Assembly (NCBI RefSeq): GCF_024298765.1
Contig: NZ_CP101210.1
Reading direction: 5' to 3' (one strand)
Length of the DNA stretch: 64,000 nt
Origin: Escherichia coli
GTDB taxonomy: Bacteria > Pseudomonadota > Gammaproteobacteria > Enterobacterales > Enterobacteriaceae
A model generated the notes under the pieces. The model was not told the DNA's origin and ran no database searches. It was given only the letters and a program-made list of their open reading frames with translations. A program made the translations under genes and the position numbers. Positions 6,844 to 50,293 of this stretch are shown piece after piece (within the stretch, counting starts at the first letter, position 1; every line of letters starts with the position of its first letter).

Positions 6844-6928
6844 GTATCAGTCTGCTTCGCAAGACGCCTTGCTTTTCACTTTCTATCAGACAATCTGTGT
6901 GAGCACTGCAAAGAACGCTTCTTTAAGG

Positions 6929-8470
<1,542 letters not shown>

Positions 8471-44387: not shown

Positions 44388-45281
<894 letters not shown>

Positions 45282-45659: not shown

Positions 45660-47213
45660 TTATTTGATATCCTTCACGCGCATACCGTTGAGCTGTTCAT
45701 CCGTAATGGTGTTGCCCGCTTTGAAGTAATCAACCACCGCGTGATAAACGTAATAACCGCCCGTTGTGTTACGCGCTTTCCCTTCGGTAAAGGCGGTAAA
45801 ACCATCTCCACCATCAGCAAGGAAACTCTGAGTAGCAATGTGATAAACCGTCGCATCTTCAATGGGTTTGCCATTCAGAGCCAGTGTGATTACCCGCTGA
45901 CCAACCGGCTTGCTGCTGTCGTACTTCATTTCCAGGCCTTTCGATACCTGTAAAACGCCATTGCTTAAACTTGCGCCGTGTTCCATCAGACTGCGTAATT
46001 GTTTACCCGTGAGTTCCATCGTCACCAGTTCGTTGGGGAACGGGAACGTACTGATGACGCCGCCCATCGTGATCGCCCCTGCGGGGATCTCATTGCGAAT
46101 GCCGCCAGAGTTGGTTAACGCCAATTGGGTGTTTTTACCCGCCGCTACCAGTAAAGCGTCAGCCGCCAGGTTCCCGAGGGAAGCCGATTCACCATAGGCA
46201 CGTTTTAATTCAACCGGCGATTGCGCCACCGTTTGTTGCACCACTTCATCAAGCTTTTTATTCCAGCCGTCGATCACCTGTTTCGTTTGTGGATCGGGCT
46301 TCCACTCGTCAGCGTAAATGGTTTTAAGCTCGAAGTTTTTCACCGTAAAATTATGCGGCTTCTCTTTGTAGTCGAGAACCAGTTTGCCCACATCAATCCC
46401 GCCGCTGTCAGTGGAGAGGATGAGCGTATTGCCGACTTTAATCGGTTCCGGCGTACCCACATGTGCATGTCCGGTGATCAAAATATCCAGCCCTTTCACC
46501 TGACTTGCCGTCTGAATATCTTTATCCAGCGCGCGACGCACATCTGTGCCTCCCATACTGGACTGGCGGGCCGGAACACCTTCATGGATCAGGGCGACGG
46601 TCAAATCAACCTTGCCTTTAAGTTCATCGATATAACGTTGTAGCCATTTAATTTCATCACGCGCCTCAATACCCACTCGCGTGGCAGCAGATACTGTGTC
46701 ATTAAAGGCAAATACACCGTGCAAACCTATAACGCCTATTTTCACACCGTCTTTTTCGATGATGGTATAGGGCTTATCCCAGAATGATTTACTGCTGTTC
46801 TGATAAAAAACATTGCCCTGCACAATCGGGAATTTTGCCTGACTCAACTGTAATAATGTGTTGTCCCAGCCGTGGTCAAATTCATGGTTGCCTATCGTGA
46901 CGGCATCAAACGGCATAGTATTCATAATATCGATAATAGCCTTACCTTTGGTCAGGCTGCTGATATATGGCCCGGTAAAATAGTCGCCCGCATCAAAAAA
47001 CCATGTCGCTTTATTTTTTGCTTTTTCTTGCTTAACCAGCGTAGTGATATTTGCCCAGCCGCCAATATCCCGTTTACCGTCAGCGATCCACGGCACTTTA
47101 TAAGGTTCTACATGCGCATGGAGGTCGTTGGTATAAATAATAGTGACATCTTTAGCGCAAGCCCAGAACGGCAGTGTTAATGCGATACCCGCAGCAAGTA
47201 TTTTAATTTTCAT
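45660..47213 (-). CDS. Secreted bifunctional metallophosphatase / 5'-nucleotidase, UshA/YfkN-like (paralog 1, about 517 aa); accessory
   Basis: ORF 45660..47219 starts on TTG; first ATG is at 47211-47213. Signal peptide [20 protein letters not shown]|KD. Calcineurin-like motifs [27 protein letters not shown], plus a C-terminal 5'-nucleotidase substrate-binding domain. Confidence 0.85.
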
Positions 47214-47345
47214 AAACAATCCCTTTCAGTGAGATAAAGGATTGCTACATTACGTTCTGAAAGACTTATTTATGTGAGAGTAATCACATCTGCAGGGGAT
47301 AGTTGCCGGACAAAATCAACGACCTTGTGAAATCGTTGGTGATAT

Positions 47346-48470
47346 ATGTCGACTCTGTTTACGATTAATGCCTGTAAAACGTTCGGTTGCCGAAATTTGG
47401 GATTGGCCTCATCGGAAGATTACAGTTGGCCAGACTATAAACTGGGTTATCCGGCACTGCACTGTCGGGCATGTGGCAGTTACCCGCCGTTGTTTGACGA
47501 GCAACAATTTCGTGACTGGTTGTCAGTTCACTTATCTACGTGGGCCTCGGAGAAGGGTCATTTCTGCCCGGTATGTTATGGCACAGACATGATTTGTTAT
47601 GGTCACAATCCACAGGGTTCGCAACGCATTCAATGCCGTAACTGCAAAAAAGTCTGGACGCCTAAACAGTATCAGAAAGAAATTACGCATCCCCAGGCCA
47701 TTGAAACCGTTCAACTGTTCATACCCTTTCAAGGGGCCAGCGCAGTACAAAAACTGTATGTTTTAGTCAGTCTTGACGCCACTCGTGGCAACATTCTTCA
47801 TCTCTCCACGAATTATACGCAACATCAGACAGGAGACAGTCTGCGGTACAGTTACAAGGGCAACACAGAACCAACTATGCACCATCGCGATATCGTGCAG
47901 AAGGTAGATATGCGTGAAGCGCAATTCTTGCGCCGGAGCCAGTTCGATGAAATTCAGTATGGCAGTGCTGTACTCAAGCGCAACGGTAAGGGAGCCATAC
48001 TACGCCCGGTTATCACGGCACACGGGCATTTCAGAATACTGAAAATCCGCTATCCAGATGTCAAAACGCATATTATTTCACACGAATGTTTTCTAAGAGG
48101 CGCAATTATTACAGCCTGGGCAGATCAGTTCCGCCAACAACAAGGTGAACTTTGGTTCGTAGAAGAAGAAATCAGTGACAGTAACGCTGATACGCCCTGG
48201 CATTTTAAGGGAACGACATACCATGGTTGGTGGCAAAATCAGTGGCAGCGCTGGGAGCAGGGGAATAACTGCAAGATGGTCTGCCTACTCACGGGAGCCA
48301 GCTTAGAAAGGGGCGCAAATGTTTCTCTGGCAACCAGTCGTTGTTTTATCACATGGCTGACAGACCAACACGACTTTACCCAAAGCGCGTTATTATCCGC
48401 AGGTCGCGTAACGCAAATGCTGACCTCACTGGCGTTAAAATACAATGAATCGCTCACTCCATCTTGTTAG
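47346..48470 (+). CDS. Cysteine-rich hypothetical protein with two N-terminal zinc ribbons (374 aa), the second InsA/IS1-like; function unknown
   Basis: CxxxxC...CxxC (C10, C15, C40, C43) and CPVC-x19-QRIQCRNCKKVW (C74, C77, C97, C100). The second fits the IS1 InsA pattern CPxC...QRYxCxxCRKxW. No recognisable domain in the C-terminal 260 aa. Divergent from paralog 1. Confidence 0.6.
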   Translation: MSTLFTINACKTFGCRNLGLASSEDYSWPDYKLGYPALHCRACGSYPPLFDEQQFRDWLSVHLSTWASEKGHFCPVCYGTDMICYGHNPQGSQRIQCRNCKKVWTPKQYQKEITHPQAIETVQLFIPFQGASAVQKLYVLVSLDATRGNILHLSTNYTQHQTGDSLRYSYKGNTEPTMHHRDIVQKVDMREAQFLRRSQFDEIQYGSAVLKRNGKGAILRPVITAHGHFRILKIRYPDVKTHIISHECFLRGAIITAWADQFRQQQGELWFVEEEISDSNADTPWHFKGTTYHGWWQNQWQRWEQGNNCKMVCLLTGASLERGANVSLATSRCFITWLTDQHDFTQSALLSAGRVTQMLTSLALKYNESLTPSC

Positions 48471-48699
48471 TCAATACACTCGACAAACGACCATAAATTA
48501 AGAGAGATCACTACCTTTCATTTAATTAAATATATAAATGTATGACCGTGAAATATAATCATGGTCAATGTTTAATTAATAACATTATTTGTTACTAAGA
48601 TCACATAATACTTTTCTGAACTATGCTTACATAAAATAAGACACGATGTGCCTTTTATTTAAATAATTCAACAAATGTAACACACCCTATCCAGGAGGG

Positions 48700-50253
48700 A
48701 TGATGAAAACTGTATTTACAACATTATCAGTCATATTCGGCGTGATATTTTCTCACAGTGTTCTAGCTCAGGACGTTACTATTTATTATACGAATGACAT
48801 TCACGCACATGTCAATCCGGCAAAAATCCTCGCTGTTGATAAGAACAGACTTATAGGTGGTATGGCTAATATTGCAGGCATCGTTAATGAAGCGAAGAAA
48901 AAAAGCAAAGATGTGTTTTTCTTTGATGCAGGCGACTATTTTACCGGGCCGTATATCAGCACCCTGACCAAAGGTGAAGCTATTATTGATATCATGAACA
49001 CTATGCCCTTTGATGCGGTGTCTGTTGGTAATCACGAGTTCGATCACGGTGTGCCCAATATGGTGTCTCAGTTATCAAAAGCAAAATTTCCCATTCTGCT
49101 GGGAAATATCTACTACACCGATACGAATAAACCAGTTTGGGATCATCCGTGGACCATTATCGAAAAAGATGGTTTAAAGATTGGTGTGATTGGATTGCAT
49201 GGCGCATTCGCTTTCTATGATACAGTCGCGGCAAAAGCACGTGAAGGCGTAGAAGCCAGAGACGAAATTAAATATTTAAATAAAGCACTTGCAGAATTAA
49301 AAGGCAAAGTCGACATTACCGTTTTGCTAATTCACGAAGGTGTCCCGGCGCGTCAATCAAGCTTTGGTAGTAAAGATGTGGAGCGGCTACTACAGGCAGA
49401 TATTGAGACAGCTAAAAAAGTGAATGGTGTTGATGTCTTAATTACCGGTCACGCACATGTCGGAACACCGCAACCAATAAAAGTTAATAACACATTAATT
49501 GTATCTACCGATGCATACGGCACCAACATCGGAAAACTTGTGCTTGATTACAATCCGAAAACGAAGAAAATTGATAGTTATAATGGTGAGTTAATCACCA
49601 TCTTTGCAGATCAATTTAAACCTGACACCATCGTTCAAAATACTATTGATAAATGGAGTGCAAAGCTTAACAAAATAACACAGGAAGTTGTCGGCCATTC
49701 TCCCGTAGTTTTAACACGTGAGTATGGTAGTTCCTCTTCTACCGGCAACCTTATTCTTGATGCAATGATGGAAAAAACACCTGATGCCGTTGCCGGATTT
49801 CAAAATAGCGGTGGGATTCGAGCTGATTTTCCTAAAGGCGATATCACACTGGGAGATGTTATTAGCACATTCCCCTTTAATAATGACCTCATCGAGATGG
49901 ATTTGACGGGCCGCGATCTCAAATCATTGATGACGCATGCAACCAATCTAACTAACGGTGTGTTACAAGTTTCTAAAAGTGTTGCGGTTGTCTATGACAG
50001 CAAAAAACCCCTCAACCAACGGTTAATCTCTTTCACCATTAACGGCAAACCTGTGGAAGATAATCAAACATATCGTATTGCCACGCACTCCTTTTGTGCC
50101 AGTGGTGGTGACGGTTTTGAAGCATTTTTGAATGGAAAAAATGTGAAGACGATACCGGGAACAACCTCGGCGGAATCTATCATCGATTATTTCAAAAATC
50201 ATAAACCTGTCACCCCAGACTTAACTAAACGAGTCATGGACGTCGCCAAATAA
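48700..50253 (+). CDS. Secreted metallophosphatase / 5'-nucleotidase, UshA-like (paralog 2, 517 aa); accessory
   Basis: AGGAGG RBS at 48693-48698; signal peptide MMKTVFTTLSVIFGVIFSHSVLA|QD; same motif set ([27 protein letters not shown]). The most divergent of the three paralogs, with visibly AT-richer codon usage. Confidence 0.85.
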   Translation: MMKTVFTTLSVIFGVIFSHSVLAQDVTIYYTNDIHAHVNPAKILAVDKNRLIGGMANIAGIVNEAKKKSKDVFFFDAGDYFTGPYISTLTKGEAIIDIMNTMPFDAVSVGNHEFDHGVPNMVSQLSKAKFPILLGNIYYTDTNKPVWDHPWTIIEKDGLKIGVIGLHGAFAFYDTVAAKAREGVEARDEIKYLNKALAELKGKVDITVLLIHEGVPARQSSFGSKDVERLLQADIETAKKVNGVDVLITGHAHVGTPQPIKVNNTLIVSTDAYGTNIGKLVLDYNPKTKKIDSYNGELITIFADQFKPDTIVQNTIDKWSAKLNKITQEVVGHSPVVLTREYGSSSSTGNLILDAMMEKTPDAVAGFQNSGGIRADFPKGDITLGDVISTFPFNNDLIEMDLTGRDLKSLMTHATNLTNGVLQVSKSVAVVYDSKKPLNQRLISFTINGKPVEDNQTYRIATHSFCASGGDGFEAFLNGKNVKTIPGTTSAESIIDYFKNHKPVTPDLTKRVMDVAK

Positions 50254-50293
50254 AATCTCATTTATCAGTCAATTTATTTAACAAGGAATGCGA

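Follow-up and report, generated by a model that had tools for sequence, protein, structure and literature searches.

A probable domesticated IS1-type transposase as a candidate partner of CRP at nucleotide scavenging genes of Escherichia coli

The metF-metL island and its 374-residue protein

The 64,000-nucleotide stretch of Escherichia coli DNA considered here (the window) carries an island of lower G+C between the chromosomal genes metF (44388-45278) and metL (53068-55500). The island contains a gene for a protein of 374 amino acids (aa), 14 of them cysteines, which RefSeq labels "hypothetical protein" or "cytoplasmic protein" (WP_000105531.1). Our analysis suggests that this protein is a domesticated, immobile descendant of an IS1-family transposase, and that, with cyclic AMP (cAMP)-CRP, it regulates nearby genes for the scavenging of nucleotides and nucleosides. 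We regard the transposase ancestry and the immobility as very probable and the regulatory role as reasonably likely. The original prediction, made from the letters of the sequence, had proposed a domesticated transposase-derived local regulator, and all of the computational tests run, on origin, immobility, gene linkage and the cis-element, support it. The island is known as genomic region GR31 in extraintestinal pathogenic (ExPEC) and avian pathogenic (APEC) strains, where only its nucleotidase and tsx open reading frames (ORFs) have been discussed (PMC12928451). In the literature searched, no study of the 374-aa protein or of its family was found.

The gene is divergent from a 5'-nucleotidase gene (nuc1), its conserved partner, across 132 bp (47214-47345). 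It lies upstream of two further nucleotidase paralogs (nuc2 and nuc3) and a tsx-like gene, an arrangement that the ORFs and the annotation bear out as first described (Table 1). The latter three genes are missing from about 1170 E. coli genomes and from Citrobacter, in which the island consists solely of the minimal two-gene module, nuc1 plus the family gene.

Table 1. Features of the island, in window coordinates
Feature	Position	Strand	Basis or remark
nuc1, 5'-nucleotidase paralog 1	45660..47213	-	Metallophosphatase and 5'-nucleotidase C domain, signal-like N-terminus; ORF and annotation
Invariant block TTACGTTCTGAAA	47250..47262	-	Identical in 7 enteric loci
CRP-type site TGTGAgagtaaTCACA, perfect consensus half-sites	47273..47288		Pattern search, 0 mismatches
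Candidate operator, palindrome ATCAACGA-N10-TCGTTGGT	47315..47340		Ends 5 nt before the ATG of the 374-aa gene
19-mer ACCAACGATTTCACAAGGT	47340 to 47322	-	In register with the family-wide ACCAAC motif; centre 47331
Coding sequence, 374-aa IS1-like transposase-derived protein, short form without helix-turn-helix	47346..48470	+	ORF, ATG start
Zinc ribbon 1 (C10, C15, C40, C43), family-specific	47373..47474	+	Cysteine conservation; beta-hairpin in the model, predicted local distance difference test (pLDDT) ~96
Zinc ribbon 2 (C74, C77, C97, C100), InsA/IS1-like	47565..47645	+	Pfam/NCBIfam sub-threshold, family-level matches, hhalign
RNase H-like (DDE-transposase) fold, residues 118-374	47697..48467	+	AlphaFold2 model; catalytic D, D positions not conserved
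nuc2, nucleotidase paralog	48700-50253	+	ORF and annotation; accessory to the island
nuc3, nucleotidase paralog	50288-51913	+	ORF and annotation; accessory to the island
tsx-like gene	51990-52850	+	ORF and annotation; accessory to the island

An exhaustive HMMER search of 1.84 billion cluster representatives returned only 123 proteins at E<=0.001. Full-length homologues with 61-82% identity were found by a word-index search in Escherichia, Citrobacter, Klebsiella, Enterobacter, Kluyvera, Pluralibacter and Pseudocitrobacter. Distant full-length members, 400-520 aa long and 19-28% identical, occur in genera including Vibrio, Photobacterium, Enterovibrio, Aliivibrio and Psychromonas, and also in Motilimonas, Agarivorans, Gynuella, Proteus, Serratia and Salmonella; genome contigs were searched with these long-form relatives as queries. 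The homologues are named "cytoplasmic protein", "hypothetical protein" or, automatically, "IS1 family transposase" in the databases, and none has a studied function.

Domains, fold and relation to IS1

The two four-cysteine ribbons first noticed in the N-terminal 110 residues are conserved across a 54-sequence family alignment. In ribbon 1 (C10-x4-C15 ... C40-x2-C43), which matches no known family, the cysteines are kept in all of the aligned sequences that cover the region (50-51 of 54). In ribbon 2 (C74-x2-C77 ... C97-x2-C100), C97 and C100 are present in 54/54 sequences, C77 in 52/54 and C74 in 43/54. Both ribbons are conserved family features rather than chance occurrences.

Ribbon 2 had been said to fit InsA remarkably well, which overstates the case for the single protein but holds for the family. 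The single protein matches Pfam Zn_ribbon_InsA (PF03811) over residues 74-101 with an independent E-value of 0.0072 and scores 23.2 bits with NCBIfam IS1_IS1595_Zn, whose cutoff is 28. With NCBIfam transpos_IS1 (NF033558) it scores 22.4 bits against a curated cutoff of 100, over residues 74-135 and model positions 1-62; the top-scoring family member reaches 35.5 bits, still sub-threshold, and the match of P0164 extends to model position 140. At family level these profile searches, which had been proposed as a check, become significant: 8 of the 54 members match Zn_ribbon_InsA at E<=0.001, the lowest value being 1.4e-7. When the family alignment was compared by hhalign with IS1 InsAB', for which the actual sequence from the IS1A copy of strain CT30 was used, a probability of 96.4% and an E-value of 1e-9 were obtained over 82 columns. 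The part matched, InsAB' residues 4-87, comprises the zinc ribbon and the InsA helix-turn-helix (HTH). The InsA likeness of ribbon 2 is thus weak in the single protein and solid at the family level.

Long-form relatives have a three-helix unit after ribbon 2 (residues 108-123, 128-135 and 139-161 in the V. mimicus type; model, pLDDT 88). In the E. coli clade this HTH segment is deleted between residues 112 and 113, as judged from the family alignment.

The C-terminal 260 residues had been described as free of recognizable motifs. This is correct in that residues 110-374 match no Pfam, NCBIfam or PADLOC family by sequence and contain neither an HTH nor a DDE triad, but not as regards structure. 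An AlphaFold2 model built on the family alignment (pLDDT 93.8, predicted TM-score 0.93) shows an RNase H-like transposase fold, with the topology beta1-beta2-beta3-alpha-beta4-alpha-beta5-alpha, similarity to known members of the fold superfamily and a four-strand beta insertion at residues 268-314. Structure prediction of this domain was the other check proposed, and structure comparison places it closest, outside the family, to IS1 transposase. A search by sequence for relatives of solved structure gave only spurious cysteine-pattern matches (papillomavirus E6, C2H2 finger arrays).

The catalytic positions were mapped by the order of secondary structure, without coordinate superposition. Mapped in this way, Asp or Glu (D/E) does not exceed 17% in any column of beta1 (118-128) or 11% after beta4 (217-224) in the 54 sequences. 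Conserved at the former catalytic positions are instead T121 (T/S in 51/54) and P221. The strongly acidic columns of the family are E247 (D/E in 54/54, just past beta5), D201 and D144, of which only E247 is invariantly acidic. The strongly conserved polar residues of the domain are R197, H228, H246, E247 and R251. The model thus presents the C-terminal part as a transposase catalytic fold in which the DDE residues have apparently been replaced.

The gene is also immobile by every measure applied. A score above the family cutoff, a DDE triad, inverted repeats and mobility, the features by which an IS1 transposase is recognized, were all looked for and none was found. No inverted repeat pair brackets 47346-48470, as the original prediction had it, and the long inverted repeats of the island are all formed by the nucleotidase paralogs; the IS1A of CT30, taken for comparison, has 23-bp inverted repeats. 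The gene is one ORF without the insA/insB frameshift organization. Of 5426 complete E. coli genomes, 1841 have the gene, each in a single copy, and at the loci that were inspected it occupies the metF-metL site. In two of the 1841 matches it is plasmid-borne. Among E. coli, Citrobacter, Klebsiella and Enterobacter, the ORFs are intact and the ratio of nonsynonymous to synonymous substitution rates (dN/dS) is 0.10-0.18. We consider the gene immobile because the triad is degenerate, inverted repeats are lacking, the copy number is one, the synteny is fixed and selection is purifying.

Gene linkage and the candidate operator

At about 40 loci in Enterobacteriaceae, Vibrionaceae and other gamma-proteobacteria, the family gene lies beside 5'-nucleotidase, nupC-deo, tsx or phosphatase genes. 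The linkage holds at every locus with enough flanking sequence, one truncated copy excepted. The arrangement varies with the lineage. In seven of seven enteric loci (two E. coli lineages, Citrobacter, Klebsiella sp., E. hormaechei, Pluralibacter and one further; six lineages), the gene is divergent from a 5'-nucleotidase gene with a gap of 132-138 nt, and the pair is found at three different chromosomal sites. In 19 Vibrionaceae/Psychromonas loci, the 5'-nucleotidase gene is directly upstream on the same strand. In Motilimonas, Agarivorans, Gynuella and a single metagenome contig, its divergent neighbors are operons of the xapX-like/nupC-like/deoCABD or tal-add-deoCABD type, and tsx-like, add, tatD or Bmp-type nucleoside ABC transporter genes lie on the flanks. 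In the P0142 lineage it is divergent from genes for a porin, a class-B acid phosphatase (AphA-like) and a class-II cyclic nucleotide phosphodiesterase (PDEase_II). In P0159, a member of a deeper branch, it adjoins a sulfatase/phosphodiesterase gene, tsx and a nucleotidase gene.

The candidate operator lies in the nuc1/gene intergenic region. The palindrome ATCAACGA-N10-TCGTTGGT has a unique exact match in the window, where 0.03 would be expected, and is invariant in the seven enteric loci. The CRP site is at the same position, with 0-2 mismatches, in all seven. Across genera this intergenic region is 80-84% identical, and the proteins there 57-70%. The invariant TTACGTTCTGAAA block would, from its spacing, be the -10/leader part of the nuc1 promoter if CRP bound at -41.5.

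A related element is found with the long forms. The Vibrio nucleotidase promoters share a 19-nt motif with the consensus ACCAACACAAATGGTAACT, in which C3, A4, A5, C6, A9, G14, A17 and T19 are invariant or nearly so. A position weight matrix (PWM) was built from 17 Vibrio nucleotidase-promoter sites only. Within whole 15-kb loci, its best match for L012, L035, L037, L038, L039 and L040 falls in the 100 bp that precede the family gene, and L036 has its second-best match there. All of these loci except L035, which is a truncated copy from V. hepatarius, are deo-linked and independent of the PWM. Since both the motif and the intergenic regions are AT-rich, the level of such matches by chance is above what region size alone suggests.

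The distance of the 19-mer from a CRP-like site is nearly constant. Between the centres of the 19-mer and of TGTGA-N6-TCACA there are 50.5 bp in 24 of the 26 long-form loci; the two others have 49.5 or 51.5 bp. The same 50.5-bp register is seen in L005, in L024 and at a second site of L006, upstream of a major facilitator superfamily (MFS) transporter gene. In seven of seven enteric loci, a minus-strand 19-mer of the form ACCAACGATTT-N5-GGT (47340 to 47322 in the window) is likewise 50.5 bp from the CRP site. When 669 kb of sequence was scanned for motif matches with a CRP-like site 18-89 bp downstream, 38 pairs were found, spaced by 50.5 bp (27 pairs), 51.5 bp (6), 49.5 bp (1) or another distance (4). 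All 34 of the pairs spaced by 49.5-51.5 bp adjoin the family gene or its operon.

The form of the site differs between the two forms of the protein. In long forms the HTH goes with an asymmetric site, ACCAAC...GGTAAC. The enteric short form is without the HTH, and its site has a second, inverted ACCAAC half in place of the GGTAAC half. Protein domain content and site form thus appear, from the sequences compared, to change together.

Within the window the element is confined to nuc1 and the 374-aa gene. Two regions, 47214-47345 and 48471-48699, had been singled out for DNA-binding tests. The first holds the candidate operator, but no copy of the palindrome is present upstream of nuc2, nuc3 or tsx, and half-site matches are at chance level. 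The conserved unit is therefore the two-gene module of nuc1 and the 374-aa gene. Upstream of nuc2 there is a CRP-like site, TGTTActaagaTCACA (48590-48605, one mismatch), with no ACCAAC element 50.5 bp upstream of it, and the nuc2-nuc3-tsx operon may be CRP-dependent yet independent of the 374-aa protein.

Other origins of the element were considered and rejected. The PWM does not support a derivation from IS1 ends: the best score on the real IS1A was 6.8, which 85 of 500 shuffles reached, and the inverted repeat GCCAACTTACTGATTTAGT scored 4.1. The resemblance of IS1 ends to the motif is limited to CCAACTTA. Nor did the consensus sequences of IHF, PhoB, CytR, ArcA, CpxR or OmpR, compared by eye, fit both halves of the 19-mer.

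Some further features were seen at these loci. Five nucleotidase promoters of Vibrio and Thaumasiovibrio (L019, L023, L026, L027 and L033) have a palindrome of the LacI/PurR/CytR type, GCAAACGnTTGC, between the 19-mer and the CRP-like site; in L016 it is found just past the CRP site. The layout recalls CytR sandwiched between two activators. No LacI-type box is present in the seven enteric loci. The deo-linked composite element faces an operon in which genes for a XapX-like membrane peptide of 56-62 aa and a NupC-type nucleoside transporter come first, followed by deoCABD (L037 4986-6778, L039 5340-6827, and about 6620-6795 in L036, L038 and L040); in L012 only a decayed xapX-like remnant is left. 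The truncated copy in L035 (Vibrio hepatarius DSM 19134, 6903-7716) covers query residues 99-440 over 716 nt and has the 19-mer and the CRP-like site directly upstream, without a nucleotidase gene, so that it resembles a deletion derivative of the operon. The deeper branch comprises P0159 (L011 5062-8023) and Salmonella "putative cytoplasmic proteins" (Q8Z9N7, A0A8X6EQK0, G5PXM9) of 22-25% identity. Its genes adjoin sulfatase/phosphodiesterase genes and have no ACCAAC-type PWM match, and the family may regulate other periplasmic hydrolases as well. In the nuc1 leader (47224-47263, minus strand), an inverted repeat CTTTCAG...CTGAAAG can pair and sequester the Shine-Dalgarno sequence (-15 kcal/mol, z -2.3). 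The repeat is identical in the seven enteric loci, which leaves no covariation to test, and may serve translational control or be merely promoter sequence.

A proposed role and its alternatives

The reading that we favor is that the family consists of sequence-specific transcription factors that would serve nucleotide and nucleoside scavenging genes alongside cAMP-CRP. The argument for a regulatory role is the linkage to such genes in distant genera, together with a cis-element that accompanies the gene and keeps a constant distance from a CRP site. The protein would have kept the InsA-type ribbon, with a family-specific ribbon in front, and an RNase H-like fold minus the DDE triad. DNA binding by the 374-aa protein, like the sign of its action and the nature of its effector, is what we infer from these features. 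Binding to the ACCAAC-type element would be via the ribbon or ribbons, plus the HTH in long forms, and the palindromic site of the enteric loci suggests binding as a dimer. The element is centered 50.5 bp upstream of the CRP site, which would place it at about -92 if CRP occupied -41.5 of the nuc1 promoter. In CytR-type nucleoside promoters of E. coli, the distal CRP binds at about -92. The geometry leans slightly toward co-activation with CRP over repression. In E. coli the divergent nuc1 promoter has the element upstream of its CRP site; the element also lies directly over the 5' leader of the 374-aa gene, so the protein would control both nuc1 and its own gene. The overlap with the regulator's own leader in E. 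coli, Agarivorans and Gynuella suggests autoregulation. The former catalytic domain would be a sensor or oligomerization domain, with the polar cluster R197, H228, H246, E247 and R251 as a candidate effector or interaction site.

Several points weigh against a DNA-binding regulator of IS1 descent. The 374-aa protein has no HTH, either in its sequence or in the alignment to InsAB', and DNA binding by IS1 InsA depends on the HTH. For binding, the E. coli clade would therefore have to use either the ribbons or its C-terminal domain. The link to IS1 by sequence covers only the N-terminal 80 residues; the C-terminal domain appears linked by its modeled fold alone, because hhalign to InsB (E 0.21, probability 0.3%) and NCBIfam scans of six isolated C-terminal domains of the family (nothing relevant) were negative. 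The Vibrionaceae promoters are orthologous and their 19 loci are not independent observations, although independence does hold for the deo-, porin- and enteric-linked promoters, which serve different genes. The 19-mer could belong to a different factor that simply accompanies the gene. The Vibrio gene follows the nucleotidase gene in one transcript, which fits an autoregulated operon and also a non-regulatory partner protein. Finally, the conserved polar residues R197, H228, H246, E247 and R251 could mean catalysis, not sensing.

If the last point is taken at face value, the protein would be transposase-derived without being a transcription factor: a remodelled RNase H-like site (H228, H246, E247, R197) would make it an enzyme or a nucleotide- or nucleic-acid-binder of cytoplasmic nucleotide metabolism, and the ACCAAC element would be read by another factor. 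The (near) invariance of polar residues in the former catalytic domain, the operon with the nucleotidase gene in Vibrionaceae, and the function-linked synteny that the E. coli clade retains despite loss of the HTH all agree with this possibility. We nevertheless consider it unlikely. Two zinc ribbons and, in most members, an InsA-type HTH are DNA-binding modules, no enzyme family is matched by sequence, and the partner enzymes have signal peptides and would be periplasmic, whereas the 374-aa protein, judged from its sequence, has none. Moreover, the motif tracks the family gene across unrelated target operons and its form shifts with domain content. The rigidity of the 50.5-bp distance could alternatively mean that the protein is a co-factor that contacts CRP, RNA polymerase or a CytR-like repressor, its own sequence-specific reading of DNA being weak or absent. 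The E. coli form without an HTH and the CytR/PurR-like GCAAACGnTTGC boxes that five Vibrio promoters have between motif and CRP site also suit a co-factor. Yet the ACCAAC core is conserved (C3, A4, A5 and C6 nearly or fully invariant) and its orientation defined, which argues for direct base reading, and the LacI-type box is absent from the enteric loci; a co-factor role seems quite improbable to us.

The original prediction had also allowed for a decayed mobile-element gene that delivered the island. An IS1-family insertion sequence gene, ordinary or decaying, would explain the sub-threshold IS1 and InsA matches and the automatic name "IS1 family transposase" of some homologues. We find it scarcely credible. 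A full-length match to an intact transposase with flanking inverted repeats would have spoken for it; what was found is 22.4 bits where the curated cutoff is 100, and no inverted repeats. There is one copy per genome in a fixed context, the DDE positions are not conserved, and the insA/insB frameshift organization is lacking. The ORFs are intact under purifying selection across genera, and the same partner gene accompanies the family gene at three different chromosomal sites.

The regulator that we favor can be compared with several known systems. Like IS1 InsAB' and InsA, the family has a CxxC...CxxC ribbon, followed in long-form relatives by an HTH, that aligns to InsAB' residues 4-87, and its C-terminal fold is closest to that of IS1 transposases. 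InsA is a DNA-binding repressor at IS1 ends. Unlike InsAB', the family gene is a single ORF without a frameshift, and the protein has an extra N-terminal ribbon and the four-strand beta insertion. Unlike IS1, the family has no conserved DDE triad and no inverted repeats and is single-copy, in synteny with metabolic genes of the host. In the E. coli clade the HTH of InsA has been lost, and the motif PWM has no significant match to the IS1 inverted repeats. In the CytR/CRP promoters of E. coli (deoP2, cdd, tsx, nupG), as in the present case, the targets are nucleoside uptake and catabolism and tsx, a CRP site is needed and a second protein is placed about 50 bp upstream; some Vibrio promoters of the family also have a LacI-type box between the two. 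The differences are that an ACCAAC-type element replaces the second CRP site and that the regulator is unrelated to LacI/CytR. The positions of the family's elements relative to the transcription start would follow from the assumed placement of CRP.

Domestication of DDE transposases into regulators is textbook knowledge in eukaryotes, where FHY3/FAR1 (Mutator) and CENP-B/pogo-derived proteins are examples. The concept is the same: the DNA-binding domain is kept, the triad is degenerate and the protein serves host regulation. The present case differs in being bacterial, IS1-derived and apparently coupled to CRP with a fixed promoter geometry. No bacterial DDE-transposase-derived regulator was found in the literature searched. 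The nearest concept is TldR, a class of bacterial TnpB-derived, nuclease-dead, RNA-guided transcription factors (PMC10705468). In TldR also a transposon-encoded bacterial nuclease has been domesticated into a nuclease-dead regulator (PMC10705468), but it is of TnpB origin, with a RuvC fold and an omega RNA guide, whereas the present family is DDE-derived. A search of the island against Rfam gave no RNA match at E<=1.

If the regulatory reading is true, the family would be a clean case of bacterial domestication, with a traceable ancestor (IS1), a defined catalytic loss, a natural domain-loss variant and a matching change of the site. Under this reading, a "cytoplasmic protein" that is encoded by one in three complete E. 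coli genomes, and by many Enterobacteriaceae and Vibrionaceae, acquires a role that can be tested, and a precise operator and a CRP-dependent promoter architecture are predicted. The predicted control layer, so far unrecognized, would act over periplasmic nucleotidases, Tsx/NupC uptake and deo catabolism, functions relevant to growth on DNA, nucleotides or NAD from outside the cell in gut and marine habitats.

A more far-reaching version is only tentatively put forward and seems to us less likely than not. An IS1-type DDE transposase might have been domesticated early in the gamma-proteobacteria into a new class of ligand-sensing transcription factors. The zinc ribbon, with or without the HTH, would still read a transposon-end-like ACCAAC site, and the dead active-site pocket (T121, R197, H228, H246, E247, R251) would now accept a nucleoside or nucleotide as effector. 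The protein would replace the distal CRP of CytR-type promoters and contact CRP or RNA polymerase at 50.5 bp, a fixed geometry that would switch on extracellular nucleotide scavenging. On this version the family would be, as far as the literature searched goes, the first bacterial family of transcription factors known to derive from a DDE transposase.

A role in defense or in phages was also considered and rejected: a PADLOC search with the 374-aa protein returned no defense family at E<=1, and its PHROGs match is confined to the ribbon region.

Some strains carry natural variants of the module. In E. coli CT30 (L014 1709-2439, corresponding to about 47346 in the window), IS1A is inserted at the extreme 5' end of the 374-aa gene and parts it from its leader and the operator candidate, a natural mutant. 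In E. coli 2014C-3338, nuc1 is annotated as frameshifted. Compared with E. coli p4A (L041 7001-8131), the gene of the window (47346-48470) is a mosaic. Identity is at least 94% over the stretch that begins at metF, includes nuc1 and the intergenic region and ends ~45 nt into the gene, 85-93% in the zinc-ribbon part (47388-47687) and 67-80% from about 47688 onward, and the synonymous divergence (dS) is 0.088 for nuc1 and 1.1 for the 374-aa gene. The regional drop in identity and the contrast in dS place a recombination breakpoint within the 374-aa gene. The divergent C-terminal allele accompanies the presence of nuc2-nuc3-tsx.

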